64,000 nt of DNA, from positions 544,001 through 608,000 of the forward strand of contig CAVSIV010000001.1 of NCBI GenBank assembly GCA_963728205.1. Reading direction: 5' to 3'. Positions 3,655-28,738 of the stretch are shown here, one piece after another. This stretch comes from an uncultured Chloroflexia bacterium (GTDB lineage: Bacteria > Chloroflexota > Dehalococcoidia > UBA2979). Below the pieces are notes generated by a model. That model worked only from the letters and a program-made list of their open reading frames with translations, ran no database searches and was not told where the DNA came from. A program made the translations under genes and the position numbers. Position 1 is the first letter of the stretch; each line of letters opens with the position of its first letter.

Positions 3655-3673
3655 TGTCGCGGGAGGTGCGCTC

Positions 3674-7882: not shown

Positions 7883-7967
7883 CCCCCTCGGCGCGGGAGG
7901 CGCGTGTGGCGCGTGTGGCGCGATCGATCACGCGACGGCGGACGGGCCGGGTGCGGGAGGTGGCCGC

Positions 7968-9736: not shown

Positions 9737-9775
9737 CTGCGCGCGGCGCGACGCGCGCGGCGAGGGGAGACGGCG

Positions 9776-10171: not shown

Positions 10172-10176
10172 GCAAG

Positions 10177-10656
10177 ATGCCCGGCGACGCGCACCTGCTC
10201 TCCGACATCCGCATCGACCTCCGCGAGGCGACGCTGCGACCGGTGTACGGCGTCGGCGAAGAGCGTCGGCAGGTCACCACGCGCCAGGGGCCGCGCCGGA
10301 TCGTCGACTTCGCGACCACCGACGGCCGGGACAACCTGGGTCAGGCCGTCGCGCTGCGGCTCCTCACGCCGCGCGGGGAGCTGAGCGCGCTGGCGCACCC
10401 CGAGTACGGCTCCCGGCTCCACGAGCTGATCGGCCGGCCGAACACCGCCACGACGCGGGACCTCGTGCGGCTGTTCGTGCTCGAGAGCCTGCAGCGCGAG
10501 CCCCGCATCGCGCGCATCGTCGACCTCGTGATCACCGCGCGCGACACCGGCGACGCGACGGTGCGCAGCCTCGTCGACGTGGCGCTGCGCGTGCAGCCCG
10601 CGGACGCGCCGGCCGGGAACGTGGTCGACCTCGGCCCGTTCACGATCGCGCTCTAG
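10177..10656 (+). CDS. GPW/gp25 family baseplate protein
   Basis: GRDNLGQAVALRLLTPRGEL..HPEYGSRLHELIG and LQREPRI are gp25 signatures. ATG at 10177 follows the PAAR stop. Confidence 0.9.
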   Translation: MPGDAHLLSDIRIDLREATLRPVYGVGEERRQVTTRQGPRRIVDFATTDGRDNLGQAVALRLLTPRGELSALAHPEYGSRLHELIGRPNTATTRDLVRLFVLESLQREPRIARIVDLVITARDTGDATVRSLVDVALRVQPADAPAGNVVDLGPFTIAL

Positions 10657-10678
10657 CGAGCGAGAAGAGGAGCCGCCC

Positions 10679-12451: not shown

Positions 12452-15212
12452 GTACGAGGCGATCCGCGACCGCCTGCCGACGCTCTACCGTCCGCAGGAG
12501 GGCGATCCGGCGAGCGCCCGGCTGCCGCTGCGCGCCGCGGATCTCGCCGCCGTGAACGACGGCGCGCCGCCGGCAATCGCGGAGCGCGGCGACGGCTCGC
12601 TCGACCTCACGTTCGACGCGCCGACCGCGGTGCGCTCGCTCCGTTTCGCCGCCGGCGTCTCCCCCGGCACCGTCGTCACCGTCGAGTTGCGGCGCTTCCC
12701 CGCCGGCGTGCCCGCCGTGCTGCCGGCGGCGACCGCCCCGCTCGTGCGCCGCGTCGCCGGCTTCGCCGGCGACTTCGCCGATGCGCGCGTGAACGTCCGC
12801 CTCGTGCGGCCGGCGCTGTTCGAGACGTTCCTGCGCGGTGCCGCGCGTCCGCTCGACGAGCTCGGGCGCGAGGCCGCGGAGGTGATGCAGGCGCACTGGC
12901 TCGACTACGCCGACCGCGGCCTCTTCAGCCCGTACCTCGCGCGCGTCCACGAGCTCGCCGACGCCGCCCCGCCGGCCCGCGCCGACGCCGACGTCGTGAC
13001 GTTCCCGTTCCTCGACGACCTCCCCCGCCTCGGCTCGCTCATCCCGCTGCCCCCCTGGCGCGAGCCGCCCGCGAGCCGCGAGCGCGTCGAGGGGTACCGG
13101 CAGCGCATCCGTCGGATCGTCGCGCTCTACCGCCGCGGCGTCGGCACGCTGCCGGCCGTGCGCGCGATGGCGGAGGCGTCGCTCCCGGTCGACCTCACGG
13201 CGCCGGCGGGGCTGCGCGACCGCCCGCTCGGCGTCGAGGAGTTCGCGCCGCTCGTGCGCCGCGTGTTCCCCGCGCCGACGCGCGCGCAGCCCGACGCAAT
13301 CGTCGGTCCGCTGATGCGCTGGGCGATGACGAACGACGGCCTCGAGGCCGCGCCGCCCACGCTCTACGTCGAAGGCACGACGCCGGATTCCGGCGTCGAC
13401 CCGACGGCACGGCCGCTGCTCGAGCTCTTCAGCGCCGGCGGCAATCGCGTGCGGATCGGCATCGCCTACGAGGGCACGGTCGCGGCGGGGCAGGTGCTAC
13501 GCGTGCGGCCGGCGTACTCGTCGTGGCTGGCCGGCGACGGCGGGCTTGCCGTCGCGACCGCACTCCCCGCCGACGACGCGCCGGCGAGCCGTGCGGCGGC
13601 CGGGCCGTGGTCGGCCGCGCCCGGTGCGCCGGGCGGGCCCGTCACCGCGGTGCGCCAGGTCGCCAATCACAGCCTGTGGGCGGCGACCTTCGACGCCGGC
13701 GCCGGCACCGGCTCGCTGTGGCGCTTCGACGGGGCGACCTGGACCGAGGCGCTGCCCGGCCTGCCGGAGGTGCATGCCCTCGCCGCCGACGGCGACGACC
13801 TGCTCGTCGGCACGGCCTCGGGGCTGTTCCGGCTGCCGCTCTACCCGCCGGAAGGCGAGGCGTTCGCGCCGGCGCCAGCGCCCGGCGACCTCTCGGGGCC
13901 CGCCGTCCACGCGCTTCTCCGCGGCGCCGACGGCACCTGGTGGGTCGGGGCCGAGCAGGGTCTCGCGCGGCTCGGCGACGGCGACGTGCTCGACTGGTTC
14001 GGTCTCGGCGCCGTAGCCGAGACGGCCGTGCCCGTTTACGCGCTGTTCGAGGACGCGACGGGATCGCTCTACGTGGGAACGCAGCGCGGCCTGTTCGAGT
14101 ACCAGCCGTCACGCGGGCACTGGTACTGGTACGAGGGCCGCGAGCACAGCGAGAGCGCGCCGGACTGGCGTCCGTTCCGGCCCGAGGCGAGCGGCGACGA
14201 GCGCGGCTTCCCCGCGGAGGACGACGTCTTCCTGCCACCCGTGCGCGCCGTGCGCCGCGGACCCGACGCCGCGCTGTGGGTCGGCACCGACGCCGGCATC
14301 GCGCGCTACTACGCGCGGCCGGCGCGCGGCCTCGCCTACTCGACGTTGCTCGAGGCGTTCGCGGATCTCGCGGCGGGGCCGGTGACGGCGATCGAGGAGG
14401 ACGGCCGGCGCGGGCTCTGGTTCGCGACGACGCAGGGGCTGTTCCGGTACGACGGGCGCGACTTCTGGCAGGCGCAGTCCGGCGCCTTCGTGCGGCTGCC
14501 GCTCGGCAACGCGGTCGCCCCCGACCCGGAGGAGCCGCGCTTCTGGCGCTTCGATCGGGCCGGGGGGCACTGGCAGTCGCTCGACCCCGCGTCGCCGGGC
14601 GCGCTGTGGACCGCGTTCACCCCCGAGCCGCGGGGCACCGCCGAGCCCGCCGTGCGCGCGCTCGCCTGGACGGCCGGCGCCGCCGCCGATCTCGGCAGCT
14701 TCGACGGCGACGCGTTCACCTCGGACCCCGGGGCGACGCCGGCGGCGCTGCGAATGCGCTACAAGCCGACGGACGATCGCGTCGTCGACGGCGGCATCCC
14801 GGCGGTGCCGCTCCTCCCGGTGGGCGACTCCACCTGGCGCTACCTCGCGCTCGAGAGCACGTCCGACGCGGTGTCGCCGCGGCGCCCTGCGTGGACAATC
14901 GAGGGGCGGCTCCTCCCGCCGCCGGACGCGGCGCCGCCGCTCGAGGGCCGCTTTGGCCAGTCGCCGGCGGCGGAGTTCAGCGACTTCGACGACGCGGCGT
15001 TCGCGTTCCATCCGGCCGCCCGCGTGCGGTTCGAGTGGGAGGCGCGCCGGCCATTCACCGTCCTGGTGCGGCTGGGTCTGCTGGACGGGGAGGGGCAGAT
15101 CGCCCCCGCGGTGCTCGACCGCGTGTGGCAGGGCGTCGAGCAGGTGCGGCCGGCGGGCGTGCGCGCCCTGGTGGCAGTGGAAGACCGGCTGGTTCGAGGC
15201 GAAACCGGATAA
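12444..15212 (+). CDS. Baseplate wedge / P2 gpI-like tail protein with an inserted two-component-regulator-type beta-propeller
   Basis: Overlaps the J stop. N-terminal YRQRIRRIVALYRRGVGT and C-terminal VEQVRPAGV are gpI-like motifs. Between them are LWVGTDAGIARY, LWFATTQGLFRYDG and LYVGTQRGLFEY propeller blades. Confidence 0.75.
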   Translation: MPEYEAIRDRLPTLYRPQEGDPASARLPLRAADLAAVNDGAPPAIAERGDGSLDLTFDAPTAVRSLRFAAGVSPGTVVTVELRRFPAGVPAVLPAATAPLVRRVAGFAGDFADARVNVRLVRPALFETFLRGAARPLDELGREAAEVMQAHWLDYADRGLFSPYLARVHELADAAPPARADADVVTFPFLDDLPRLGSLIPLPPWREPPASRERVEGYRQRIRRIVALYRRGVGTLPAVRAMAEASLPVDLTAPAGLRDRPLGVEEFAPLVRRVFPAPTRAQPDAIVGPLMRWAMTNDGLEAAPPTLYVEGTTPDSGVDPTARPLLELFSAGGNRVRIGIAYEGTVAAGQVLRVRPAYSSWLAGDGGLAVATALPADDAPASRAAAGPWSAAPGAPGGPVTAVRQVANHSLWAATFDAGAGTGSLWRFDGATWTEALPGLPEVHALAADGDDLLVGTASGLFRLPLYPPEGEAFAPAPAPGDLSGPAVHALLRGADGTWWVGAEQGLARLGDGDVLDWFGLGAVAETAVPVYALFEDATGSLYVGTQRGLFEYQPSRGHWYWYEGREHSESAPDWRPFRPEASGDERGFPAEDDVFLPPVRAVRRGPDAALWVGTDAGIARYYARPARGLAYSTLLEAFADLAAGPVTAIEEDGRRGLWFATTQGLFRYDGRDFWQAQSGAFVRLPLGNAVAPDPEEPRFWRFDRAGGHWQSLDPASPGALWTAFTPEPRGTAEPAVRALAWTAGAAADLGSFDGDAFTSDPGATPAALRMRYKPTDDRVVDGGIPAVPLLPVGDSTWRYLALESTSDAVSPRRPAWTIEGRLLPPPDAAPPLEGRFGQSPAAEFSDFDDAAFAFHPAARVRFEWEARRPFTVLVRLGLLDGEGQIAPAVLDRVWQGVEQVRPAGVRALVAVEDRLVRGETG

Positions 15213-15231: not shown

Positions 15232-16764
15232 ATGGGAGCACTGGCAGACACGCTGGGCAACAGGGTCGCCGGCGACCTGATCCGGGCGGAAGACTGGAAC
15301 GCGCTGATCGCCGGCGTCGAAAACGCCGATCAGGCGCTGCAGACGCAGATCACCGACCTGGGGACACAGCTCGACACACGCATCGGCGCGGTCGAGGATC
15401 GCGTCACCGCGCTCGAGACGCAGGCGAGCCAGCTCGACGAGCGCGTGACCACCACGGAGGCGGCGCTCTCCACGCTCCAGGGCGTGGTCGACACGCTGCG
15501 CGGGCAGTTCCGGCGCGTGACGATGCAGACCGATCGGCTGCACTTCGCGATCGGCGAGATCGCGGAGATCACCGCCCGGATCACGGACCTCGGTGGGGCG
15601 CCCCTGACCTTCGCCGACGCCGCGACGCGGCCCTGGATCGACTTCGTCGCGGTCTGGGGGCAGCTCAAGCCGGTCCCCGGCTTCGAGGCGCTGGGCGGCG
15701 CCGGCGACCGCACGATCTCGGTGCGCGTCGACGCGAACGGGGTAGCCCGCGTGCGACTGCGCGCGGAGCACTCGCAAGGCCTCACGGACGAGGTCGAGAG
15801 CGAGGTGCAGACGTCGCTCGGCACGGTGCTGCAGAGCACGAACACGAGCATCGCGCAGACGATCCTCGCCGCGGCGACGCCGCAGGAGGCCGTCCAGCGC
15901 GGCGCCTTCCACGTCATCACCGGCGAGTACGATCGGACGGACGCGACGAGCGTGCGCACGTTCGCGGATGCCTATTACCTGCGCAATCCCATCGACATCT
16001 CCGGCAAGATCGCGCCGATCTTCCAGCACAGCTGGCAGGACTACCGCGCGACGGTGCTGGCGTTCGGGAAGAACGACAGCGACCCGCAGACGCCCGACGC
16101 GAGCATCGGGGTCTGCTCGATCCAGCTCACGTTCCGCGACTGGATCGGGCCGTGGCTGCACCTCGACTACATCAGCGGCGCCGACGCGCTCGCCGCCGGC
16201 TACGGGGCGCGGCTCGCCGGCCGGATCGACGGGGATCTCGCGGCCTCGGTGAGCCGCCTCAAGAGCGAGGTCGATGGGATCGTGCTGAACAAGGGCGTGA
16301 TCGCCAAGCAGCGCGACCTGCAGGCGATTCGCCACGCCGTCGGGCAGATGGAGGTCACGAACCCGCCGCCGTTCCTCAGCCGGCTGAAGGACTCGATGCG
16401 CGACGGCGTCGCGATGCAGCAGGTGCTGGAGTTCTCGCAGGCGACGTCGCTGGGCGACTCGGCCCCGACGACCGCGTTCAGCGCGTTCACCGACTCGTCG
16501 TCGCGGGTGGACACGCAGGCCGAGGCGGTGCGCACGGACCTGACGGGCTATGTGCAGAGCCAGGTGGCGGACGCGGAACAGCGGCTCCAGACCCACGTGG
16601 CGACGCAGCAGGAGACGCTGCGGCAGGACCTCCTGCGCACCGACGGACCGATCCTCGGCCTGCAGCGCTCGCTCGACGAGGTCTCGGGGCGCATCGGCGG
16701 CGTGCAGACCGCGCTGGACAAGAAGGCCGACATCACGATGATCGGCCGCTTCCTGCCCCAGTAA
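15232..16764 (+). CDS. CIS-associated coiled-coil protein (fibre/adaptor-like), paralog of the next gene
   Basis: ATG after GAGG. N-terminal VAGDLIRAEDWN motif, then a heptad coiled coil, an Ig-like segment and a C-terminal coiled coil. Confidence 0.7.
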   Translation: MGALADTLGNRVAGDLIRAEDWNALIAGVENADQALQTQITDLGTQLDTRIGAVEDRVTALETQASQLDERVTTTEAALSTLQGVVDTLRGQFRRVTMQTDRLHFAIGEIAEITARITDLGGAPLTFADAATRPWIDFVAVWGQLKPVPGFEALGGAGDRTISVRVDANGVARVRLRAEHSQGLTDEVESEVQTSLGTVLQSTNTSIAQTILAAATPQEAVQRGAFHVITGEYDRTDATSVRTFADAYYLRNPIDISGKIAPIFQHSWQDYRATVLAFGKNDSDPQTPDASIGVCSIQLTFRDWIGPWLHLDYISGADALAAGYGARLAGRIDGDLAASVSRLKSEVDGIVLNKGVIAKQRDLQAIRHAVGQMEVTNPPPFLSRLKDSMRDGVAMQQVLEFSQATSLGDSAPTTAFSAFTDSSSRVDTQAEAVRTDLTGYVQSQVADAEQRLQTHVATQQETLRQDLLRTDGPILGLQRSLDEVSGRIGGVQTALDKKADITMIGRFLPQ

Positions 16765-16781
16765 CGGAGGAGGTGCCACCC

Positions 16782-18458
16782 GTGGCACGCATCTACCTGG
16801 AACCCGGCGACGTCGGCGCCGCGGACGCGCGCATGGTGCTCGACTTCCTCAACGCCGCGACGTCGGCGGAGGAGATCGCCGCCGCCGTGGAGCTGCCGAA
16901 CGAGCTCGACATCGGCGTCCGGCTCGCACAGCGGCTGCTCGACCGCCGCGCGCAGCTCGGCTCGTTCACGACGCTCCAGCAGGTGGCGGACGTCCCGCTG
17001 ATCGGCCCGGAGCGCTTCACCGAGATCGTGACCACGCTCTCCGCGGCGCGACTCCCCCAGGGCGACGTGCCGGCGAACATCGGCGACGAGCTCCGCGCGC
17101 TGCGCCGCGATCTCGACGCGCTCCGCGGCGCCGCCGCGGCGCAGCCGTCGCTCACGTTGGAGACGCTGCAGGCGGAGCCGTACCTCGGGCAATCCGTGAA
17201 CGTCGTCGCCCGTGCGACCGCGCCCGGCGGTGAGCAACCGCTGATCGGCGCGACCGTCGTCGTCGCGACGACCTGGGGCCGGCTGCGCGGCGTCGAGGGC
17301 GTCCAGCTCCGCGACGCGCAGTCGCTGCGGCTGCGCACCGGCGTCGACGGTGCCGCGCGCGCGATTCTCCTGCCGCCGACGTCGGAGGACCTCACGGGCG
17401 TGCAGCAGTCCACGCTCGAGGTCGCGCTGCAGGGCCTCGACCCGGCGGCCATGACCCCCGTCGGGACCCAGGCCGGCCTGCAGGCGCTCGCCGAGCGCTA
17501 CCGCCGCGGAGGCGACGCACCGTTCCGGCGCGCCGTGGACATCTACTTCCGCGACTTCGCCGGCCGCGCGAGCGAGCCGTTGAACGTCCGCGACGCACTC
17601 GCGGCGTGGGCCTACTTCCAGGGCACGCTCGTGGCCTATCTCCCCAGCGCGGAGGTCGAGTCCTCCGTGCAGGCGACGGCCGTCCGGCCGCTGTGGGTGC
17701 GCGACTGGCTCGCGCCGTGGCTCGAGGTCCTGCAGTCGCTCGCCCACGAGGCCGCCGGGCTCGACACCGAGCTGGTCGACCTCGTCCGCACACACATCGC
17801 GGACGAAGGCGCCGGCACGGTGCTCAGTCGCGTCTACGGCCGCATCCACGACTTCGTCGACGACCAGGCAGGCGTCGTCGGGCAGTTCGTCGGCCGCAAA
17901 GTGGCGGAGCGCTCGCTGACGACCGTGCTGGACGCGGGCCTCGCGGATGCCACGCGCGAGCAGCGCGTCGCCCTCTTCCCCGGCGCCGAAGCCGGGACCC
18001 GCCTCCTCGATACCGCGCCCACGTCGGTGCTCGCAGGAATCGGCGACGCGCGGGCGGATCTGCGCCGGGACATCCAGCCGCGCATCGACGCCGGGATCGC
18101 CGGGGTGCAGTCGTCGATCTCCTCCGTCCAGTCGCAGCTGACCGATCGCGTCGCCGCGATCGAGACGAGCGTGAGCGCGAAGGCGGACGCCTCCCGCGTC
18201 GCCGCGCTCGAGAGCGCGGACCAGGCGCGCGCGGCGACGATCGCGACGATCACGTCCCAGATCGGTGACATCCAGACCGCGCTCGGCGGCAAGATCGACG
18301 CCTCGCAGTTCGAGGCGTTCCAGTCGAGCACGCAGGATCAGTTCGCCTCGCTGCAGCAGACCACGTCGCAGCTGGACACCACGGTGGGCACCCTGAACAC
18401 GTCGTTGAGCGGGCTGAACACCAACGTCACGGATCTGCGCCGGAGCATCGGGCAGTGA
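16782..18458 (+). CDS. ComEA-like helix-hairpin-helix domain plus coiled-coil CIS-associated protein
   Basis: GTG after GGAGGAGG. LNAATSAEEI...DIGVRLAQRLLDRRAQLGSFTTLQQVADVPLIGPERFTEI matches the ComEA (HhH)2 pattern. Long C-terminal heptad repeat. Confidence 0.8.
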   Translation: MARIYLEPGDVGAADARMVLDFLNAATSAEEIAAAVELPNELDIGVRLAQRLLDRRAQLGSFTTLQQVADVPLIGPERFTEIVTTLSAARLPQGDVPANIGDELRALRRDLDALRGAAAAQPSLTLETLQAEPYLGQSVNVVARATAPGGEQPLIGATVVVATTWGRLRGVEGVQLRDAQSLRLRTGVDGAARAILLPPTSEDLTGVQQSTLEVALQGLDPAAMTPVGTQAGLQALAERYRRGGDAPFRRAVDIYFRDFAGRASEPLNVRDALAAWAYFQGTLVAYLPSAEVESSVQATAVRPLWVRDWLAPWLEVLQSLAHEAAGLDTELVDLVRTHIADEGAGTVLSRVYGRIHDFVDDQAGVVGQFVGRKVAERSLTTVLDAGLADATREQRVALFPGAEAGTRLLDTAPTSVLAGIGDARADLRRDIQPRIDAGIAGVQSSISSVQSQLTDRVAAIETSVSAKADASRVAALESADQARAATIATITSQIGDIQTALGGKIDASQFEAFQSSTQDQFASLQQTTSQLDTTVGTLNTSLSGLNTNVTDLRRSIGQ

Positions 18459-20269
18459 ACGTCGACGCCGTCGCGAGCACGCCGGGCGCCGGCGCCGGGC
18501 CGCTCACCGCGCGGACGCTGCTCACCCCCGCCGGCGCCGCGCCGCGCGTCGTGTACCGCGACGTCTCGTACGTGCGGCTGGCGCCGGGTGCGCTCGCCGG
18601 GTCGCTCGCGCTGGACGCGGCCGCATGTGCCCTCGGCGGCGCCTTCACCAGCTACGACTTCGACGCGCTCGCGATCGCGGAGCCGACGCTGCAAGCCTCG
18701 ACGCGCAGCCTCGGCGGAGGCACGGTCGCGGTGGAGCTCGGCGCGCCGCGTCGCCTCCGTTCGATCCAGGTCGCTCACGGCAAGGTGCCGTCGACCGGGT
18801 ACACGCTCGAGGTCTACCGGCTCGACGGCGACACGCCGTCCGGCCAGCCGACCACGACCGCGACGAACGCGATCGAGACCGCCAACGTGGTCGGCGAGGC
18901 CGTCGTCGTCGGAGGTGCGGGCGGGGGCGACGTCGTGGCCGGGGCGACGGAGAACGCATACGTGCTCGAGGCCCGCCGCACCTTCTGGGTGGACTTCACC
19001 GATGCGCGCTTCGCGCTGCGGCTGAAGCAGCCCGGCGGGGGCTACGTCACGAGCCTTGCGCCCGGCGACGTCGACGTCGTCTCCGTGCGCAGCTACCCGT
19101 CGTCCCCGCGCGTGCGCGTCGCGTTCCCGCAGGACCCGGCCTCGCCGGTGGGCGACCCGACGGCCGCAGTTCCGGTGTGGCAGGCGGCCGGGGAGATTGG
19201 CGGCGCAGTGCCGGCGACCGCGGGCACCTTCGACGCCGCAGACGCGCTCGCCGACGCACTGGCGCGTGGCGCGGCCCGGCTGGCGGATGCCGTGCAAGCG
19301 TCGGCGTCGGCGGCGTCCCCGGTGCCGCCGCTCCCGCCGACGATCGACGTCGCGCTGGTGATCGAGTCCGACGCCCCCTGTCGCTTCCAGCCGGCGGGGT
19401 TCGCGGTCGCCTACCGCCCGGTGACGAGTGCATTCGCGAGCGGCGAGGAGAAGGCGACCGTGCGCTTCGCCGGCGCGGGCGCGGCGGCGAGCGCGCCGAG
19501 CGTGCGGCTCCCGGGCGGGGCGACCGTGGTGTCGGCCGAGCTGCGCGCGACGCCGAGCCTGCGCACCGGGCGGCCCGGCGGGGTCGACGCCGCGGCGGCA
19601 TCCGCGCCGCCCACGAGCCGCGCCGGCATCCGTGTCGGCGCCGGCCGGCAGGCGGCGCAGGTCGTGCAGCCCGACGCGGCGCTCGAGGCAACGGGGTTCC
19701 TCCTCGGCGTCATCCCGCTCGACGACGGCGTCGAGTTGCACGCCGCGCTCGTCGAGGACGCCGGCGGGGCGCCGGCCGGCCGCGTCCTCGCGGAGGGGAC
19801 GCTCGCGACGGGCGTGCCCGGGCGGCCGGCATGGCTGAGCTGGCGCCTCGACGCGCCGCTCGTCGTCACGACCGCGCGCCACTGGGTGCGGCTCGCGGCG
19901 GCCAGCGGAGAGGCGGTCTGGTTGAGCGCCGCCGGCTCCGGCCCGGCGTGCGCGCTGGCCGATGACGGCTCGACGCTCGCCACGCTCACGGACCGCGACC
20001 TGATGGTGCTCCCGGTCGTCGGCGCCGGAGCGAACGGCGGCCCGCCCGGCGACGCGGCGCCACGCCTGGACGTCGCGGGCATGTCCGTCAGCGCGAGCGC
20101 CGGCGCGGACGGCCGCCTGGTCTACGACCTGGCCGCCGCGTTGACTGCCGCGCTCACGGGGCAGCCGCCCGGCGCGGTCGTGGAGGTACCGCTGTCGTTC
20201 GCCTCGCCGGCGCCGGGTTCGCTCACGGTCTACCCGCCGCGAATCGAGTTCGAGCCAGCGACCGCGTGA
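18455..20269 (+). CDS. Hypothetical beta-rich protein of the CIS operon
   Basis: GTGA overlap with the previous stop, 604 aa, host-like codon usage. No recognised motif. Confidence 0.65.
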   Translation: MNVDAVASTPGAGAGPLTARTLLTPAGAAPRVVYRDVSYVRLAPGALAGSLALDAAACALGGAFTSYDFDALAIAEPTLQASTRSLGGGTVAVELGAPRRLRSIQVAHGKVPSTGYTLEVYRLDGDTPSGQPTTTATNAIETANVVGEAVVVGGAGGGDVVAGATENAYVLEARRTFWVDFTDARFALRLKQPGGGYVTSLAPGDVDVVSVRSYPSSPRVRVAFPQDPASPVGDPTAAVPVWQAAGEIGGAVPATAGTFDAADALADALARGAARLADAVQASASAASPVPPLPPTIDVALVIESDAPCRFQPAGFAVAYRPVTSAFASGEEKATVRFAGAGAAASAPSVRLPGGATVVSAELRATPSLRTGRPGGVDAAAASAPPTSRAGIRVGAGRQAAQVVQPDAALEATGFLLGVIPLDDGVELHAALVEDAGGAPAGRVLAEGTLATGVPGRPAWLSWRLDAPLVVTTARHWVRLAAASGEAVWLSAAGSGPACALADDGSTLATLTDRDLMVLPVVGAGANGGPPGDAAPRLDVAGMSVSASAGADGRLVYDLAAALTAALTGQPPGAVVEVPLSFASPAPGSLTVYPPRIEFEPATA

Positions 20270-20311
20270 TCACGCGGGGCCCGCGAGCCCCGCCGGATGA
20301 GGAGTCGCAGG

Positions 20312-21172
20312 ATGCCCGATGGATGGATGCCCGGCGTGGAGCATCTCCCGAACCCGGCGCACGGCTACGCGTCGCTCCCCGACGGGAGCATGCGCCCGAT
20401 CGCGATCGTCAACCACATCATGCAGGGCTTCAAACGCACCATCGATCGCGAGGTGCGGGCGGGAATCGCCGAGCTCTCCGAGCACTTCTCGATCGATCGC
20501 GACGGGAACATCACGCAGTACGTCGACATCTTCAGCGGGGCCTACCACGCCGGCCGTCTCGACCCCGGCGCGCCTCCGACCTGGCCCCGCTATCGGCCGA
20601 ACACGAACCCGAACCTCTACACCGTCGGCATCGAGCACGAGGGGTTCGCGGTGCAGCCGCTGTCGTACAAAGCCGACTACGTGTACACCGAGCAGCGCCC
20701 GTGGCCGGAGCCGATGGTGCTCGCGACGATCCGCGTCCAGCGATGGATCTTCGACACGCTCGGCGCGGCGGGAATGCCGCAGGAGCCGAGCCACCTGACG
20801 GTCATCGGGCACAATGAGATCGCGCCGATCTCACGGTTCTCGGACCCCGGTCCCCTGTGGCCGCGCGACCGGATCATCACGGCGCTGAAGCCGCAGGCGG
20901 TCGTCTCGCCGATGCCGTCGTTCACCGAGCTGGTGTACATCCGCGCGCTCGCGCAGTTCCTCGGATGGGAGAAGTTCGACTGCCAGCCGGTGCCCTGCGC
21001 GCGCGAGGCTCGCACCTACCACCTGACGTTCGAGGCGCCCGACCCGCCCGATCAGCAGCACGCGGATCTCGAGCGCCAGTACCTGCAGGCGCTCGGCTTC
21101 CAGTTCCACTACACGCGGATGCGCGTGAGCCCGCTGGAAGGGCGCCGCGGATACGAGCTCGACATCACGTAA
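20312..21172 (+). CDS. N-acetylmuramoyl-L-alanine amidase (Amidase_2/PGRP fold)
   Basis: ATG after GAGGAG. Motifs IVNH, HFSIDRDGNITQYVD, AYHAG, NLYTVGIEHEG and VIGHNEI...SDPG. No signal peptide. Confidence 0.9.
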   Translation: MPDGWMPGVEHLPNPAHGYASLPDGSMRPIAIVNHIMQGFKRTIDREVRAGIAELSEHFSIDRDGNITQYVDIFSGAYHAGRLDPGAPPTWPRYRPNTNPNLYTVGIEHEGFAVQPLSYKADYVYTEQRPWPEPMVLATIRVQRWIFDTLGAAGMPQEPSHLTVIGHNEIAPISRFSDPGPLWPRDRIITALKPQAVVSPMPSFTELVYIRALAQFLGWEKFDCQPVPCAREARTYHLTFEAPDPPDQQHADLERQYLQALGFQFHYTRMRVSPLEGRRGYELDIT

Positions 21173-21274: not shown

Positions 21275-24200
21275 ATGCCCTACATCACGCTGGGACGCGA
21301 GGTCGTGCGCGGCACGATCTCGCGCGATCACTGGCGCGCCGACGTCACCCTGATGTGCTCCGACCGCTTCCCGGCCGGCGCCGCCGCGCGCCTCTTCGTC
21401 GAGATCCGCTGGCGCGCCCGCCGCGACGAGGGCGACGTCCCGGGGCTCCCGGAGGACGCGAAGCCGATCGTGCTCACGCTGCGCAAGCGCACGGCCGCCG
21501 CGACGGGGGACGTCCGGTTCGACGCCCGCGACGGGGCGACCACCCGCGGGTTCGTCGGCGACACCCGCGCGCTGCTCACGCTCTTCGCGCAGGCTCCCAC
21601 GAGCGGCGCAGAGCCCGACGTCGTGCTCGAGGTGCGCATCGAGGGCGACGTGGCCGGGAGCGTCCCGCTCTCGGTCGACGGCGGTGCCGCCGCGCCGGCG
21701 ACCGCCGTCGTCCTCCACGACGACACCGGCGCGGCGCCGGCGCACGACATCGTGCTGCACGAGGCGACCGTCGCGCTGCGCGCGGCGGCCGCGCCGGTCG
21801 CGCCGGGCGCCTTCCGCTGGGTGAGCGTGCGGCCGGACGCGCTCCCGCTCAGCGGCGGGCCGGAGGGCGAGCGGGTCGAGGTGCGCGGCGCGCTCGTGAG
21901 CGACGCCGTGGGCGACGCGCCGGTCTGCGTGCTGTTCACCCCTCGCGACGGCGGTCCGGCCGTGATGGCCGTCCACGCGGTCACCGTCGCGGAGACGCGG
22001 GTGCTTCTGGGCGACAGCGGCGAGGTGCCCGCGCCCGACCTGATCGGGGTCGGCGCCGGCGAGACCTTCCGCGCCGTGACGCGGCCGCCCGCGCTGGCGC
22101 AGGCGGTGTCGTGGCGCTTCGCCGCCGGGGCCGAGCGCACCCGCGTCGCCGGGCGCTCCGACCTTGCCGCCGCGCGGATCGAGGGGGTCCGCGCGAGCGC
22201 GGCCATGCACGACGTGCAGGCCGTCGCGACGATCGCGACGGGGCACGTGCCGGCGTCGCTCGCCGTGACGCATGACCTCACGGTGACGTCGGTGGTCGTG
22301 GTGCGCGCGGACGGGAGCGGGCTACCGGCGTTCGTGAACCTCGGGGAGACGGTGCCGGTGCTGGCGCGCGTCACGCCCGACGCGCTCGCTCGCGATGTCG
22401 CCTGGGCGGTGGTGCCGGGGCTCGGGAGCGCGGCCCGGGCGCGCGTGCAGCCCGTCGCGGGCGCGGACCGCGCGCGCAGCGCCGAGCTCGCGCCTGCGGC
22501 GTCCAGCGCCATCGACGCTCGCGACGACATCCGCCTCACTGCCGGCCTCGCCGGCGCCGACGGCGCGACGGTGGCGTCGACGGTCGTGTCCCACCCGTTC
22601 ACCGTGACGCTCGTCCGGCCGCTGCATCTCGCGGTGCCGCCGGCCGACCTCGCGACGTGGACGCTCCAGCAGGCGTACGGCCCGGGGACCGCCGGGGCGG
22701 CGTTCCACGACCGCGCGCTGTTGCGCACGACGGGTGCCGGGCGCGTCATCGCCGCCGCCGACGGGACGCTCTCGACGCATCCGCCCGGGGTCGGCGTGGC
22801 CGCGCCGCCCGACCCGGCGACGCCGGCCGGGCCGCCGCCGCCGGCGGTAACCCTCTACCTGCACCTGGCGCCGGCGATCCGGGACCGCGCCACCGGTTTC
22901 CACGCCCGCGCGGCGGGCCTCAACGGCGTCGCCGGCTTCGTGTACGACCACCTCGAGACGGCGTCGCTCGAGGCGGCGCTCGGCGATCTGCTCGACCGCG
23001 CCGAGGGCCCGGTCGCCGGGCTGGGCCGCGCGGAGCGCGTCGCGCTCCTGGTCGCCGGGCAGGCGACGGTCCCCGTCACGGGTGGCCACGCACTCGGTGC
23101 CGCCTCGCCGGACGGCGCCCCGGCCGGCCGCCGCGATCTCGGTCTGGGCGTGCTCGCCGACGACGGCGCCATCGACCCCGCGTTCGCGTACGACTGGATG
23201 CGCGACTTCGTCGCCGACGGCCAGCCTGCCGTGGACGCCTTTCTCGCCCTTGTGCCGCGCGGGTGGCCCGTCATTGACCCAACGCTCACGGTCGACCACG
23301 CGATCGACCTCACCGGCGACGCGCTCTACCCGATGGCCGTGCTCGCCGACCTCCGCCGGCGGTACGCGCTTACGACCGCGCAGTGGCGCACCGTCGGCGA
23401 CAATCAGAAGGCGCTCTGGCGGCGTCGGCTGCTGCGTCGCGCCGGGTTCGCGCCGGCCGGGGACACCGCGCCGCCGTTCGAGTTCGACGATCGCGACTGG
23501 CAGAACCTGTTTCAGCTGGAGGCGCTCGTCGAGTTCTACGTGAACTTCGACGACCCGCATCGGCCGCCGCCCCTCGTGGCCGGGGAGAACGAGCCGCGCC
23601 CCCCGCTGGAGGCTGACGGCGTGACGCCGACCCCGGGGTACCGGGCCATCGACCTCACCGGGGGCTGGCACATCGTCGTCGTCGACGCCTTCGGCGGGCG
23701 GCTGGCGGGCGCCGCGGCGACCGTCGCCGGCTCCGTCGTCACGCTCGACGGCGCGCCGGATCTCCGGCGCGTCAATCCCGGGTTCGACACCATCTACCTG
23801 CCGGGCGACCACGAGCGGCCGGGCGCAACCTACCGGGTCGCCGCCGCGAACCACGCCGCGTCGACGGTCACCGTCGACGGCGCCCCCGACTTCGCCGGCG
23901 GCACGTCGGCGTGGCACCTCCCGGCCGGCGTGAGCGGCGAGCTCCCCGCGCTCGCGTACAACCTCGGCCCGGGCGGGGCGCGAGGGTTCGACCACTACGA
24001 CGCGGCGCTCTTCGTCGTGAAGGACGGCGCCGTTCACGCGAAGTTCCGCTGGTCGAGCTACACGTCGCGCAACTACGCCGCCGGCAGCCAGCTCCTCTCG
24101 TCGCTGCGCGGCAACCGGCAGTACGACTTCGCGAGCTTCCGGTCGAACAGCGCCTTCATCAACTACGCGTTCAGCGTCGTCGACCACGGCGCCGCGTACG

Positions 24201-24604
24201 ACGGGGTGCGCGAGGCGCGCTTCTACTTCGCGACCCCGGTCACGGCCGACGCGGCCGCGCCGGGCGCGAATCCGAACGGCGGCGGCAAGACGCTGATCCG
24301 CATTCACAACGGCAACCACGGCAACCTCGCGCCCGGCGCGGCCGCGGCCGGCGGGACGGGATCGGCCGGGTGCATCGTGTCGCCGTCGTTCTACGACTTT
24401 CGCGACGTGATGATCACGCTCTTCCAGGCGGACCGGGTTGCCGCCGCCGGTGCGCCGGATCCGCACGTCGCGCAGCTGCAGGGCGCGGGCTCGGTGGCGA
24501 GCGGGGCACTGCTCGCCGCGAACACCGTCACCGCCGCGCAGTGGAACAACCGGCTCACCGGATCGTTCTGGGCGATCCGGCCGGACGAGCGGCCGCTCGG
24601 ATAG
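21275..24604 (+). CDS. Large modular protein: shared N-terminal module, Ig-like repeats, C-terminal L,D-transpeptidase-like (H...SxGC) domain
   Basis: 1109 aa. N-terminus is homologous to the next gene. C-terminal IRIHNGN...GSAGCIVSP, with His at 24305 and Cys at 24371. Confidence 0.7.
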   Translation: MPYITLGREVVRGTISRDHWRADVTLMCSDRFPAGAAARLFVEIRWRARRDEGDVPGLPEDAKPIVLTLRKRTAAATGDVRFDARDGATTRGFVGDTRALLTLFAQAPTSGAEPDVVLEVRIEGDVAGSVPLSVDGGAAAPATAVVLHDDTGAAPAHDIVLHEATVALRAAAAPVAPGAFRWVSVRPDALPLSGGPEGERVEVRGALVSDAVGDAPVCVLFTPRDGGPAVMAVHAVTVAETRVLLGDSGEVPAPDLIGVGAGETFRAVTRPPALAQAVSWRFAAGAERTRVAGRSDLAAARIEGVRASAAMHDVQAVATIATGHVPASLAVTHDLTVTSVVVVRADGSGLPAFVNLGETVPVLARVTPDALARDVAWAVVPGLGSAARARVQPVAGADRARSAELAPAASSAIDARDDIRLTAGLAGADGATVASTVVSHPFTVTLVRPLHLAVPPADLATWTLQQAYGPGTAGAAFHDRALLRTTGAGRVIAAADGTLSTHPPGVGVAAPPDPATPAGPPPPAVTLYLHLAPAIRDRATGFHARAAGLNGVAGFVYDHLETASLEAALGDLLDRAEGPVAGLGRAERVALLVAGQATVPVTGGHALGAASPDGAPAGRRDLGLGVLADDGAIDPAFAYDWMRDFVADGQPAVDAFLALVPRGWPVIDPTLTVDHAIDLTGDALYPMAVLADLRRRYALTTAQWRTVGDNQKALWRRRLLRRAGFAPAGDTAPPFEFDDRDWQNLFQLEALVEFYVNFDDPHRPPPLVAGENEPRPPLEADGVTPTPGYRAIDLTGGWHIVVVDAFGGRLAGAAATVAGSVVTLDGAPDLRRVNPGFDTIYLPGDHERPGATYRVAAANHAASTVTVDGAPDFAGGTSAWHLPAGVSGELPALAYNLGPGGARGFDHYDAALFVVKDGAVHAKFRWSSYTSRNYAAGSQLLSSLRGNRQYDFASFRSNSAFINYAFSVVDHGAAYDGVREARFYFATPVTADAAAPGANPNGGGKTLIRIHNGNHGNLAPGAAAAGGTGSAGCIVSPSFYDFRDVMITLFQADRVAAAGAPDPHVAQLQGAGSVASGALLAANTVTAAQWNNRLTGSFWAIRPDERPLG

Positions 24605-24607
24605 CCG

Positions 24608-24656
24608 GCCGCGCCTCGGCGCGCGTGCGCCGGGCCACGCGACGCCCGGGCGCGGC
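24608..24656 (+). terminator. GC-rich inverted repeat (possible terminator or mRNA-stabilising hairpin)
   Basis: GCCGCGCCTCGGCGCGCGTG ... CACGCGACGCCCGGGCGCGGC forms an imperfect ~20-bp stem just after the 24604 stop. No U-tract. Confidence 0.4.
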
Positions 24657-24706
24657 TATCCTGTGCCGAGGCCGGTCGTGATCCAGTGCAGGGTGAGGAG
24701 CGCGAC

Positions 24707-27700
24707 GTGGCCTACCGTCCGCACGCCGGCAGGAAGATCGTGCGGACGACGCTGACCCGCGACGACTGGGTCGCCAGCGTGACGCTCGCCTGCTCCGATC
24801 GCATTGCGGTCGGCGCGTCGTCGCCGCTCTTCGTCGAGGTGGCGTACCGCCACGAGCCCGCGCCGGGCGCCGACAGCGGCCACCCGGTCGATCTCACGTT
24901 CCGCTCGCTCGCCGCGGGCGGGGGCGAGATCCGGTTCGACGCCGCCGACGGCCCGACGACGCGACGCTTCGTCCGGCATGTCCGCACGGTGCTCACGCTC
25001 GTGGGCGTGACCGCCACCGCCGGCGCCGAGGCCGGCGTTGCGATCGATATCGCGATCGACGGGACCGTGAAGGAGAGCGTCCCCCTGTTCGTCGGCGCGC
25101 CGCTCGGCACGCTCGCGATCCGGGCCGCCGACGGCACGGCCGACGCGCCCGCGGAGGTCACGCTCGGCCAGACGCTGCCGCTGCGCGCCGTGCCCGACCC
25201 CGCCGCGCAGGGGACGTATCGCTGGATCGTCGTGACCGAGGACTCGCTCGCGGCCCACGGCGCGACCGACGCGGCCGCCGTCGTGCTCGGCGTGACCGGC
25301 GGCGCCGCGCTGCCCCGCACGGTGGGCTGCCTGTTCTCCCCGCCCGACGACGGTCCGCAGGTGTTCACGGTGCGCGCATTCGGCGTCCGCGCGACGCTGC
25401 TCGTCCGCACCCGCCTCGTCGGCACCGCCCCGGCACCGCTGGACGACGCCTGGGTGTACGTCCGCGACGGCGGCACGACCGTCGTGCTGCACACCGACCG
25501 CCGCGGCCGCGCGCGCTCCGCGCCCACCGGTTCCGAGCGCGCGGCGTCGTGGCTCTATACCGAGCCCTTCGGCGCGACCGCCGGCCACCCCGTGGAGATT
25601 GCCTTCAGCCGCGGCCGGAAGCCGATTCCCGACACACTCGTGCAGGCCGAGCTCGCGTTCCGGCGGCTCGACGTCGCGGCGGAAACCGCCGACGGCGACC
25701 TGGTCGGCGCGGTCACGATCCCGGAGACGCCGCTCGCGTTGACCCGACCGGGCGAGCTCACGATCTGGCCGTTGCTGCGCGAGCTGCCCGTGGACGCCTC
25801 GCTCACCGCCGGCCTCAACCAGGGCGCGGCGCTCTACGACGCGCACGGCAACCTCACGGAGCCCGAGGGCACGGTGGCGGCGCCGCCGCCGGCGAGGCCG
25901 CGCGAACGCGGGCTGGTCGTGGCGGGCACGGTCGATGCCGGCGCGACCGGCGCGCGCGTCCGGCTGATGCGCGACGACGGCACCGCGCTGCCGCTGCACG
26001 CCGGGTTCGCCGCCGCCGCGTCGGTGCTGGAGCTGCCCGCGACGATGGGCGCTCCGGCCGGGGCGACGCGGCCGTTCTCGGCGCTCATCGTGCTCGACGA
26101 CGCGGCCGCCGCATTCGGGCCGGTGCTGATCGTGGTGGACACCGTCGGGATCGCCCCGCCGCGCGTCGACGCCTTCGCGGTCCAGCTCTGCGGCGTGCAG
26201 CTCGCACTCGTCGACGACGCCGTCGCCGCCGCCGACGGCACACACGCCGGCCCGGTCCCCGGCGAGCCCGACGAGCTGAACACGATCGACTTCGGCCTGT
26301 CGCCGCAGGACAACCGCAACGACCTCACGCTCCAGGCGCGCGCGCGGCGCATGGTGAACTACGACATCCGCACGGGGACGCGCGCGTTCGACGAGACGGC
26401 GGCCGTCGGCCCCGGCAACCCGAACGTGCCAAAGCCGCAGATGCCGCTGTGGATGGGCGAGTGCCAGCTCGTCGGGATCGGGTGGGCGGATCTGCAATCG
26501 CTGATGCGCCACCGCGTGGCCTGGGTCAGCCGTGCGCCCGCGTGGTCGACGCTGGAGCTCAATCTCTCATGGCGGATCGAGCTGCGCTGGGACGGACCCG
26601 ACGTCAACTCGCCCACGTTCGCCGGACCGCCAGAGCTCATCCTGCGGTCGGGGCAGACCTACCAGTACAGCCTCGCGCTCGGCGGCGATGCGGCGCTCCG
26701 GGTTCCGTTCGACGCGCAGGGACGCCCTCTCGACGCCACCGGGGCGCCGCAGGCGCTGGATCACGGGGCGGTGCCGGCGCCGTTCACCGCCGCCCCGGCG
26801 CGCATCGCGTACCCGGTTGCCGCGCGACGGCTGCCGCGCCTCGTCGTGCAGGGCGAGCAGCGTGCGTGGGGACGGCAGGCCGGCGCCCCCCGGCGGGACT
26901 CCGTGATCGTCGAGTTCCAGCCCCGCGTCGAGGCCGGCGGCAGCGAGGCGATCCGCGGCGGAGATGGGGATCTCGCGCTGCAGAGCCTGCAGATCGATGG
27001 CGCCGCCGCCCCGCCGGGGCTCGAGCCGGACGGCGGCGGGGCGCCGGTCGCGCCCGCGGACGTGCGGCCGGCGCGCGTGCCGACGTTTCGCGTGCGCGGC
27101 ACCAACCCGGCGGCGCACGCCGCGGTCGAGCAGCTGATCGACGCGCTCGTGCGCCAGTACCACGACGCGCACGCTGCCGAGGCGCGCATCGCCACGCTCC
27201 CGCTCGCCGTCTGGCAGGAGACGGTGCGGCTGATCCTCGCGCACGAGAACGGCAACGACCGCCAGTTCTTCGACAACGCGAGCGGCCGCTACGCGTTCGC
27301 GTCGCGCGGCACGACCTTCTACTACGGGCACGAGCACCGCATGCCGTTGTTCGGCCCGCCGCACGGCTACGGGTTCGGGCAGCTCGACTTCGTGTTCGGC
27401 CGCGCCGCGAACGACGACGAGGTCTGGAGCTTCGTCGAGAACATCCAATCCGCGGTGCGGGTCGTGATGGAGGAGAAGGCCGCGGCCGCCTACCACGACA
27501 TGCACGGGCACTTCGCCGCGCCGGTCTCGCGGCGCGACCGGGCCGCGTACCGCCGCGAGGTCGTGCGGCGCTACAACGGCGGCACGGAGTTCCACTGGAA
27601 CGGCGCGGACTGGGAGATCCAGCCGGGCCTCGCGCAGTGGGCCAACGCGCACGATCACACGCAGGGGCCGAACCAGCGGCTGCGATACCCGCGACCGCGT

Positions 27701-27812
27701 GCTCGGCACCCACGTCGCCTACTACAACCCGTATCCGGCCGGCGCGGGGGCGGCGACGACGTTTCCGTGGCCGATCGCGTTCGCGGTCGGCCAGTTCGGC
27801 CCGGGGATCTGA
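24707..27812 (+). CDS. Large modular protein: shared N-terminal module plus C-terminal lysozyme-fold/lytic transglycosylase-like domain (+1 frameshift near 27692)
   Basis: GTG after GAGGAG. C-terminal LILAHENG..RQF, GYGFGQLD, WSFVENIQSA and RRYNGG follow the SLT motif order. After ...RLRYP the GC3-rich frame shifts and reads DRVLGTHVAYYNPYP...QFGPGI to TGA at 27810-27812. Confidence 0.7.
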
Positions 27813-27834: not shown

Positions 27835-28191
27835 TCAGCGGATGTGGATGTCCCGCCCGCCGCTGATGTTGATGTTCGTCTTGCCGTGCTGCACCACGTT
27901 GCCGCTGCCGCTCACGCTGATCGCCACCTGCTCGGCGTCGCGCGCGAGGGCGGGGTCGGCCGCCAGCGCGTGCTCGATGGCGGAGCGAATGCGCGGCTCG
28001 TCGTCCTCGTCCGTGCGCGTCTCAGCGCTCGCGCCGGCGGCGCCGCGGATGCGGTCCCAGAGCACCCCGAGCACATGCGCGCCGGCGTCGCCGACCCGTT
28101 CGGCGAGCTCGTCGCGCACCCGTTCCGCCGGGCGCCGTGCGAATGTCAGCAGGAGCGGCGCCAGCGCCGCCGCGATCTCGGCGATTCCCAT
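27835..28191 (-). CDS. Small helical protein (Bell-like) with a C-terminal amyloid/RHIM-like motif
   Basis: MGIAEIAAALAPLL...LWDRIRG...AIEHALAADPALARD followed by SVSGSGNVVQHGKTNINISGGRDIHIR. Confidence 0.7.
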   Translation of the reverse strand: MGIAEIAAALAPLLLTFARRPAERVRDELAERVGDAGAHVLGVLWDRIRGAAGASAETRTDEDDEPRIRSAIEHALAADPALARDAEQVAISVSGSGNVVQHGKTNINISGGRDIHIR

Positions 28192-28225
28192 GTCGCACCC
28201 CTCTCTCGGCCCATGCGGCGCCGGC

Positions 28226-28738
28226 TCAGTCCAGCGGCGAGCGTCCGCGCGCACGGCGTCCCGCCACCGACCGCGGATTGACGAGCGCGCGCACGAGCGA
28301 GCCGACCACCATCACGACGAAGCCCGCGAAGAACAACGCGCCGCCCACCGCGATACCCGGCGGGAAGCCGTCGGCCGCATCGCCGTGTGGCAGGGTGAAC
28401 AGCGTGTAGCCGAAGACCGCGAACCCCGACAACACGAGCAGGACACCCACGGTCACGATCGCGATGTAGAGCCGCGAGGGTGGCGGGTCGGGCTCGTCGA
28501 GCGCGGCGCGGATCGCCTTCGCGAGCGTCTCCGCGCTCGGCCCCTGGTAGTAGAGGTCGCCGATGCGGATGCCGCGCCCGCCGCTGATGTCGACGTTGTA
28601 GCGGCCGACCTGCACCTGGTTGTCGTCGCCGCGCACGGCGATCAGCGACCGGAGCCGATCGATGTCCGTGTCGCTGCTGCGGCCCGCCGCGATCCGGTCG
28701 AAGAGCGTGGCGAGTTCCGGGTCGACACCGTTTGCCAC
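28226..28738 (-). CDS. Two-TM membrane protein with an N-terminal EAD10-like domain carrying the same motif
   Basis: ELATLFDRIAAG..SDTDIDRLRSLI...NQVQVGRYNVDISGGRGIRIGDLYYQGPSAETL followed by two hydrophobic helices. Confidence 0.75.
   Translation of the reverse strand: MANGVDPELATLFDRIAAGRSSDTDIDRLRSLIAVRGDDNQVQVGRYNVDISGGRGIRIGDLYYQGPSAETLAKAIRAALDEPDPPPSRLYIAIVTVGVLLVLSGFAVFGYTLFTLPHGDAADGFPPGIAVGGALFFAGFVVMVVGSLVRALVNPRSVAGRRARGRSPLD

Follow-up and report, generated by a model that had tools for sequence, protein, structure and literature searches.

A folded N-terminal module with exchanged C-terminal cassettes encoded in a phage-like contractile injection system locus

The choice and loading of cargo are the least understood step of extracellular contractile injection systems (eCIS). 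The principle of a constant marker combined with variable toxins is already known from type VI secretion systems (T6SS), where it is represented by the MIX, FIX and RIX families, and from eCIS, where it is represented by the loading sequence and by DUF4157. The accounts of RIX (PMC10435454) and MIX (PMC10673891) describe a constant N-terminal marker with interchangeable toxins, the marker being either fused to the toxin or present as a separate adaptor. In the eCIS cases described in bioRxiv 10.64898/2026.05.27.728243, cargo has disordered N-terminal signals and an unfolding ATPase is involved, and PMC12923769 describes conserved N-terminal domains, eBAP1-5, that fix fibres with variable C-termini to the eCIS baseplate. 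Here, a stretch of 64,000 nucleotides of contig CAVSIV010000001.1 from an uncultured Chloroflexia bacterium (the window) was analysed, which contains a locus of a phage-like contractile injection system (CIS) and, at the distal end of this locus, two tandem genes (gene 1 and gene 2), whose products share an N-terminal module and carry different C-terminal tails.

In our reading, which we regard as reasonably probable, the module, above all its first domain (domain A), ties the two proteins to the CIS particle, and the tails are effectors that can be exchanged for one another. Three features appear to be new: the domain as such, the fact that it is folded, and the CIS lineage that it serves, with hosts belonging to the Gemmatimonadota and Cyanobacteria.

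The N-terminal module of gene 1 and gene 2

Comparison of the N-termini of the two proteins (21275-21990 and 24707-25385) by BLASTP showed 97 identities over 232 residues (42%, E = 3e-39), in agreement with the preliminary description of this DNA, which had proposed a shared N-terminal module; the length of the module is approximately 240 amino acids (aa), and all the peptide pairs quoted as examples in that description were found in the translations. BLASTP comparison of the full-length proteins gave nothing else significant (best other segment, E = 0.13); thus, gene 1 and gene 2 diverge completely past approximately residue 240, as had also been stated.

Alignment of nine modules, two from the window and seven from related loci, showed the presence of two domains. 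Domain A (approximately aa 1-135) is conserved in all nine sequences, starting from Met1, with the strongest conservation in the first ~20 residues and with the consensus G-x-E-I-V-R-G-T-I-x-R-D-x-W in the N-terminal strand. Domain B (approximately aa 144-240) is an immunoglobulin (Ig)-like sandwich, which is usually present but is missing from four cyanobacterial relatives (loci L004-L007), while domain A is always present. Accordingly, the single module of the preliminary description holds as a shared unit, but it is composed of two domains, only the first of which is retained in the cyanobacterial relatives.

The model of the module obtained with AlphaFold2 (AF2) from a 36-sequence alignment is all-beta and consists of two sandwiches, with a mean predicted local distance difference test (pLDDT) score of 94.1 and a predicted TM-score (pTM) of 0.90. 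Strands start at residue 3, residues 3-12 form a strand, and the first 10-residue block has a pLDDT of 91. No hydrophobic signal-like stretch is present at either N-terminus, which is consistent with the earlier remark that both proteins lack a signal peptide. A Foldseek search with the model of the whole module resulted in generic tandem Ig-like matches only, the best query-normalised TM-score being 0.40 in PDB and 0.32 in BFVD.

No match to Pfam, NCBIfam or PHROGs was detected for the two whole proteins or for the modules, and the module profile had no sequence match among PDB chains at E <= 10; PDB sequence searches with the gene 1 and gene 2 proteins yielded nothing relevant. A tblastn search with the module gave no match in collections of phages (50,697 records) and plasmids (72,556 records). 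No description of it was retrieved by word searches of the literature, although word matching cannot find an unnamed domain. The module, which had been called unnamed, matches no family in these collections at the level of sequence, including known generic Ig or adhesin domains, and only its fold is of the generic tandem Ig-like type.

In gene 1, the module is followed by a linker that probably consists of further Ig-like repeats: residues 314-390 (in the numbering of P0001) weakly resemble the gene 2 domain B (E = 0.13), and a second profile match is non-significant.

Gene 2, the end of which had been given as position 27812, is not intact in this sequence; a frameshift is located at approximately 27691. 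The frame of gene 2 is uninterrupted up to 28777, and a protein of 1356 aa (P0006) is recorded for it. All six homologues compared remain in this frame up to 27691; from 27693 or beyond, they follow the +1 frame, and their C-termini lie beside the stop codon at 27810-27812. The G+C content of third codon positions (GC3) shows one run of plus-strand genes from 223 to ~27800, where the signal switches, and coding on the minus strand past ~27830; the run-on frame of gene 2 is antisense to the EAD10 genes located there. Since the homologues switch frame at ~27691 and GC3 shows a change of strand, position 27812 is the stop of the frame-shifted reading. The frameshift may be biological or may be an assembly error.

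Module family and C-terminal cassettes

An exhaustive search of 1.84 billion representatives with the module profile yielded 82 matches at E <= 1e-3, including 75 at E <= 1e-10 and 51 at E <= 1e-30; a word-indexed search, limited to proteins of 615-1959 aa, had given three proteins only. The lengths of the 82 proteins vary from 70 to 1894 aa. Together with the gene 1 protein of the window (P0003), 83 proteins were examined. The module begins within the first 25 residues in 76 of them, mostly at residue 1; five matches are confined to the domain B portion of the module or are internal (P0115, P0119, P0121, P0122 and P0123), and two very short fragments (P0114 and P0116) fall under the length cut. 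Domain A was found at N-terminal positions only.

Tails of at least 150 aa are present in 54 proteins, and all-versus-all BLAST divided them into seven mutually unrelated classes, with 25, 8, 7, 5, 3, 3 and 3 members; when only the last 250 residues were used, 15 groups were obtained. The profile search suggested in the preliminary description thus revealed many different C-termini behind one module, rather than the same C-terminus throughout, and all six related loci with readable flanks are CIS baseplate loci.

The Pfam scan covered 59 of the 82 module proteins. No Pfam match lies inside the module, and 40 of the 59 proteins have no match at all. The domains identified are PG_binding_1 (5/59), Amidase_3 (5/59, some just below the curated cut-off), PETase-like alpha/beta hydrolase (4/59, mostly below the cut-off), CarboxypepD_reg (4/59), NHL (2/59, P0052 and P0084, with repeats behind the module), PLD (1/59) and Rieske (1/59). 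A wall-directed theme is plausible in view of the Amidase_3 and PG_binding_1 domains of some members, but it is not an exclusive one, as tails of the PLD and esterase-like kinds show. The Rieske protein P0098 (392 aa), in which the module is joined to a Rieske [2Fe-2S] domain (E = 1e-6), does not fit the role of a toxin or a lysin.

Residues 446-1109 of gene 1 align, at 47% identity, with the full length (747 aa, first residue to last) of P0138, a protein of Archangium minus that is named 'YkuD domain-containing protein' in UniRef. Tails of the gene 1 type were found in 36 homologues, mostly stand-alone proteins of ~740 aa, and only six of the 36 carry the module. In 29 aligned gene 1 cassettes, H1011 and S1030-x-G1032-C1033 are invariant, the cysteine being followed by a hydrophobic residue. 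This pattern resembles the L,D-transpeptidase motif, which is quoted for Tae5 as HXX14-17[S/T]HGCh (bioRxiv 10.1101/2020.02.18.954545); in gene 1, 18 residues separate H from S, and alanine occupies the position of the second histidine. Comparison with the Atlas was uninformative for this tail (score <= 0.84). The gene 1 tail is a probable cell-wall enzyme of the L,D-transpeptidase/carboxypeptidase-like type.

Tails of the gene 2 type were found in 42 proteins, ten of which have the module, six Rhs/YD sequences and four OmpA with PG_binding_1. For most of the 41 homologues, the alignment opens between residues 199 and 245 of gene 2 (five shorter proteins enter later); on the side of the homologues, the first aligned residues are 3-19 in stand-alone proteins, ~770-814 in Rhs proteins and ~620-644 in OmpA-type proteins, and the junction of the gene 2 cassette is placed at approximately aa 228-245. 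Since the similarity of homologues begins there across these contexts, the junction at approximately residue 240 is a real module boundary. The glutamate of H-E-x-G and the stretch G-P-P-H-G-Y-G-F-G-Q-L-D are invariant in these tails, and we take them to resemble motifs of lysozymes or lytic transglycosylases. In the Atlas, the homologue P0027 (52% identity over the domain) matched, with a feature score of 0.93, a cluster that has SLT in 12% of its members. Structure comparison for the same protein gave TM-scores of 0.38-0.58, the two best matches being unnamed clusters and the clusters of SLT, SLT_4 and Phage_lysozyme2 reaching 0.38-0.47. The gene 2 tail is probably a cell-wall enzyme, lysozyme/SLT-like. 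Comparison of its profile with the C-terminus of the L001 protein by hhalign gave a match of 17 residues at H-E-x-G-G with a probability of 0.5%, which does not indicate homology.

The preliminary description had called both tails cell-wall enzymes. No curated model matches them, and a Pfam scan of their in-frame pieces at E <= 10 found nothing; the assignment stands as probable on the basis of the motifs and the leads listed above. Judged by their homologues, both tails of the window are complete portable cassettes, probably drawn from a general cassette pool.

A maximum likelihood tree of 81 modules was constructed by a quick method with SH-aLRT support; matches of less than 170 aa, P0001, P0119 and P0121 were omitted, and P0002, which duplicates P0006, is among the 81. 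Tail classes are clustered on the tree but are not monophyletic. Well-supported branches force at least four changes each for the gene-2 and Amidase_3 classes, at least three for the large class, and at least two each for the gene-1, PG_binding and esterase/NHL classes. Supported sisters with different tails are represented by P0084 and P0093, as well as by P0083/P0086 and P0031/P0039. The distribution of tails on the module tree indicates that C-terminal cassettes are exchanged, and their homologues indicate that they are common to other types of delivery.

The module of gene 1 pairs with that of P0004 (support 95), and the module of gene 2 stands alone on a long branch. Since the two modules are not sister branches, recent duplication in place followed by a swap of tails was ruled out as the origin of the pair.

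CIS loci that contain the module

A scan of species-representative genomes yielded seven loci, in two metagenome-assembled genomes (MAGs) of Gemmatimonadota and five of Cyanobacteria. One of them, L002, is a 4-kb contig with the gene alone, and six of the seven have informative flanks. In each of these six, the module gene is part of a collinear CIS baseplate locus. Where the upstream region is readable (L001, L005, L006 and L007), the module gene is located 3' of the gene for a giant NHL protein, and in L005, L006 and L007 the two genes overlap by 4 nt (NHL stop and module-gene start). In L001, L003, L004 and L007, it is located 5' of the genes for the hub, spike, PAAR, gp25 and Baseplate_J, and the hub gene follows it directly in L001 and L007. 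The baseplate/spike set (gpD, gpV, PAAR, gp25 and Baseplate_J) was identified by Pfam in the window, L001, L003, L004 and L007.

In the window, the interval between the NHL and hub genes (7882-7968) is an 86-nt gap without a module gene (compare 9910-10001 in L001 and 10001 in L007). Here, the two module genes occupy the distal end of the locus, at a distance of ~12 kb and behind a gene of the Amidase_2 family; gene 2 starts ~100 nt past gene 1 and is followed at its 3' side by the convergent EAD10 genes. No further or remnant copy of the module was found in the window or in the related loci. The features of the window are given in the table below.

The G+C content is 72-77% across the locus in the window. 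In the order of genes, an NHL protein of 1400-1460 aa is conserved between the tape-measure-like gene and the site of the module gene (3662-7882 in the window, 5564-9910 in L001 and 5628-10004 in L007). The nearest annotated relatives of the spike protein (9086-9736) are gpV-like genes located on haloarchaeal plasmids (Haloferax and Halogeometricum) and, in one case, in a haloarchaeal virus, as well as VgrG of the T6SS, with identities of 27-40% in the annotated phage and plasmid collections. As the spike found distant matches only, there is no annotated relative of this type of locus among those collections. The gene directly 5' of gene 1, encoding an N-acetylmuramoyl-L-alanine amidase, is a candidate for a release lysin or for a third effector directed at the wall.

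Module-only proteins of 455-483 aa are represented by the 458-aa protein of L003 and by three similar clusters elsewhere, which suggests an adaptor acting in trans. In L003, the stop of the gene for the 458-aa protein (874-2250, module and CarboxypepD_reg) overlaps the start of an open reading frame (ORF) for 1259 aa (2250-6029). The 1259-aa product has no match to Pfam or PHROGs, contains a hydrophobic stretch and, near its end, a PD-(D/E)xK-like motif recognised by eye; the pair may be an adaptor with a separate cargo. Neither the 1259-aa protein nor a 224-aa protein of L003 has BLAST similarity to the tape-measure-like, NHL and distal genes of the window.

Table. Positions of gene 1, gene 2 and the surrounding features in the window
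Feature	Positions	Strand	Basis
Gene 1 (1109 aa), with the module, an Ig-like linker and a YkuD-like cassette	21275-24604	+	ORF, GC3 frame; ATG start the same in database copy P0003
Gene 1 domain A, aa 1-135, universally conserved, from Met1	21275-21679	+	Alignment of nine modules; AF2 block pLDDT 91-98
Gene 1 domain B, aa 144-240, second beta-sandwich	21704-21994	+	Alignment, AF2
Gene 1 linker, aa 241-445, probably more Ig-like repeats	21995-22609	+	
Gene 1 cassette, aa 446-1109, C-terminal part YkuD-like	22610-24604	+	Equals stand-alone P0138
Gene 2 before the frameshift, 995 aa in frame, with module and cassette	24707-27691	+	GTG start at 24707
Gene 2 module, aa 1-241	24707-25429	+	Profile match of residues 1-241; 42% identity to gene 1 module
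Gene 2 cassette, from ~aa 228-245 to the end; last ~245 aa (from ~27074) probably lysozyme/SLT-like	25390-27812	+	
Gene 2 frameshift site	27691-27693	+	Last ~39 codons in +1 frame, stop 27810-27812; three-frame translation
CIS core locus	223-15212	+	Pfam matches; same order as in L001 and L007, core proteins 40-73% identical
Tape-measure-like protein, 1143 aa	223-3654	+	
NHL giant, 1406 aa	3662-7882	+	
gpD-like hub	7968-9089	+	Pfam
gpV spike	9086-9736	+	Pfam
PAAR	9776-10171	+	Pfam
gp25 (sheath initiator)	10177-10656	+	Pfam
Baseplate_J	10679-12451	+	Pfam
Baseplate protein, 922 aa	12444-15212	+	
Three more ORFs	~15232-20269		
Amidase_2 gene, directly 5' of gene 1	20297-21172	+	PF01510, E = 4.8e-15; PHROG endolysin families also match
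EAD10 protein (Effector-associated domain 10, PF19954), convergent with gene 2	27835-28254	-	E = 3.5e-5
EAD10 protein (PF19954), convergent with gene 2	28226-28738	-	E = 1.2e-16

Role of the module and comparison with known systems

A folded N-terminal domain joined to different, interchangeable cassettes indicates that the module probably fastens cargo to the machine. Genes 1 and 2 would then belong to a small polymorphic effector family dedicated to one lineage of phage-like CIS. We infer that domain A would dock the protein non-covalently on the particle, most likely on the hub/spike/PAAR assembly; this site is favoured by the usual position of the gene and by the presence of a folded domain without a disordered signal or DUF4157. 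Firing would carry whatever is fused behind the module into the target, and the cassettes of gene 1 (~660 aa) and gene 2 (~790 aa) would attack peptidoglycan in the periplasm or wall of the target. Both cassettes would be harmless in the cytoplasm of the producer, and the lack of signal peptides and of immunity genes would fit wall-directed enzymes for this reason.

A number of observations weigh against this reading. No CIS or phage-tail component stands out among the fold matches of the module in PDB and BFVD. No immunity gene was found 3' of gene 1 or gene 2, which is atypical for polymorphic toxins, and gene 2 is frameshifted in this sequence. No sheath or tube genes are visible in the window, whose left end lies shortly before the tape-measure-like gene, or in the fetched flanks of the related loci; the ORFs upstream in L001 and L007 gave no Pfam match and one weak PHROG match. 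The contractile nature of the system is therefore deduced from the matches to gp25, Baseplate_J, gpV, gpD and PAAR. All seven loci were recovered through the module itself, so that they do not constitute a census of this type of CIS. As for the enzymatic activities, Pfam YkuD has no match in gene 1, in its C-terminal piece or in any of 34 homologues, the PDB profile search with the gene 1 cassette found nothing relevant, and the gene 2 tail has neither a Pfam match nor a PDB profile match. No toxin domain can be recognised in the largest tail class (25 of 54), whose role could be structural, and NHL, CarboxypepD_reg and PG_binding_1 are binding-type domains that suit a fibre or an anchor.

A more specific proposal may be put forward only tentatively: the folded tandem beta-sandwich may represent a new principle of cargo attachment that works without an unfolding ATPase, in an uncharacterised phage-like CIS of Gemmatimonadota and Cyanobacteria, domain A clipping folded cassettes to the hub or spike either in cis or, via adaptors of ~460 aa, in trans.

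One alternative is that the products are permanent structural proteins, the module anchoring a particle-attached lysin or fibre-like protein whose tail binds or digests the wall of the target locally, thereby aiding penetration, and is not injected, similar to the peptidoglycan hydrolases associated with phage virions or to eCIS fibres with N-terminal anchors. We consider this rather unlikely, though it is the most serious of the alternatives. The gene of the relatives is located among structural genes, between the tape-measure-like/NHL genes and the hub, with the overlap with the NHL stop in three loci; many tails have PG_binding_1, NHL, CarboxypepD_reg or Ig-like repeats, and the largest tail class lacks a toxin-like domain. 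Fibres of eCIS, as presented in PMC12923769, as a rule pair a conserved N-terminal anchor with a variable C-terminus. However, PLD and esterase-like tails, as well as a cassette held in common with Rhs C-termini, point to toxins, and both cassettes of the window also occur as stand-alone proteins. The genes of the window, moreover, are present in two copies at the end of the locus after the amidase gene, which is the usual place of cargo, and no similarity to a solved CIS or fibre protein was found at E <= 10. A search with the cyanobacterial 920-aa protein against PDB gave nothing relevant.

Loading into the tube lumen, as in classical eCIS, was also considered: a loading signal formed by the initial residues of the module would be recognised by an AAA+ ATPase similar to Pvc15/Alg15, and the protein would be unfolded into the tube. 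The first ~20 residues are indeed the most conserved ones, and eCIS cargo is described as loading via N-terminal sequences, large cargo in an unfolded state (bioRxiv 10.64898/2026.05.27.728243; PMC11297309). This alternative is nevertheless improbable. The signals reported in such accounts are disordered and hydrophilic, whereas here residues 3-12 form a strand in a confidently modelled region. DUF4157 was found by Pfam neither in genes 1 and 2 nor in the 59 family members scanned, nor among the neighbouring ORFs scanned. No AAA+ ATPase was found among the ORFs of the locus scanned from 223 to 28000, nor one of the Pvc15/Alg15 type in the scan extended to ~43000, the locus running past the left end of the window.

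It is highly improbable that the module has no role in the CIS and is a generic Ig-like N-terminus of secreted or surface enzymes, located near tail-like genes by chance: the generic tandem Ig-like fold and the five of 82 matches that are internal or limited to domain B would agree with this, but the gene is kept in the same collinear locus in all six informative loci from two phyla, no signal peptide is seen in gene 1 or gene 2, and domain A is confined to N-termini.

If the module does attach effectors to the particle, this folded marker would offer a handle for searching two environmental phyla for the effectors of a hitherto unstudied CIS lineage, including the class of 25 tail clusters without an assigned domain, and the stand-alone proteins of ~740-900 aa from myxobacteria and other organisms would gain a link to a toxin role. 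The family moreover documents the movement of toxin cassettes between Rhs, OmpA-type and CIS contexts of delivery, and the junction at approximately residue 240 would give a defined fusion point for tests of cargo re-targeting. Should attachment in the folded state also prove correct, a single fusion at one junction would be sufficient to recruit any stand-alone toxin, and the module would be usable as a portable tag for loading programmable injection particles of a new class.

Similar to eBAP1-5, the module proteins have a conserved N-terminal domain and variable C-termini. The module matches none of the four eBAP domains compared (eBAP1, 2, 4 and 5): eBAP1 and eBAP2 are helical bundles of ~50 aa, whereas the module is all-beta; eBAP4 forms the N-terminus of the crown protein in tCIS (PDB 7b5h), whereas the module has no match to PDB at E <= 10, and 7b5h is absent from the 50 fold matches listed; eBAP5 is DUF6519, and no Pfam match to it is present in the module proteins. 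Fibres with eBAP domains end in receptor-binding domains, whereas the module proteins end in enzyme or toxin cassettes.

Among effectors of the T6SS, the Tae5/Tlde1 type, represented by YkuD-related L,D-carboxypeptidases, shares with the gene 1 cassette the pattern of His followed by S-x-G-C-hydrophobic; gene 1 differs in having alanine in place of histidine, in the absence of a match to Pfam YkuD and in the position of the domain at the end of a cassette of ~660 aa. Six Rhs/YD proteins, of the polymorphic toxin type, end in the complete gene 2 cassette, but gene 2 has no Rhs shell, and the module stands in its place as the N-terminal part.

Similar to the eCIS cargo Pdp1 and Pnf of PVC, Afp18, and Cgo1/2 of AlgoCIS, as these are described, the two proteins of the window are encoded in a CIS locus and combine a constant N-terminus with a variable C-terminus. 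The N-termini of that cargo are reported as disordered and ATPase-dependent, whereas the module is a folded two-domain beta structure, with no DUF4157 and no ATPase in the visible part of the locus.

The MIX, FIX and RIX markers of the T6SS differ from the module in their context, since the latter belongs to a phage-like CIS locus with gpD, gpV, gp25 and Baseplate_J and to hosts among the Gemmatimonadota and Cyanobacteria, and no sequence relation of the module to a curated family was found in the scans of Pfam and NCBIfam. Like these markers, the module family contains both fused forms and module-only forms.

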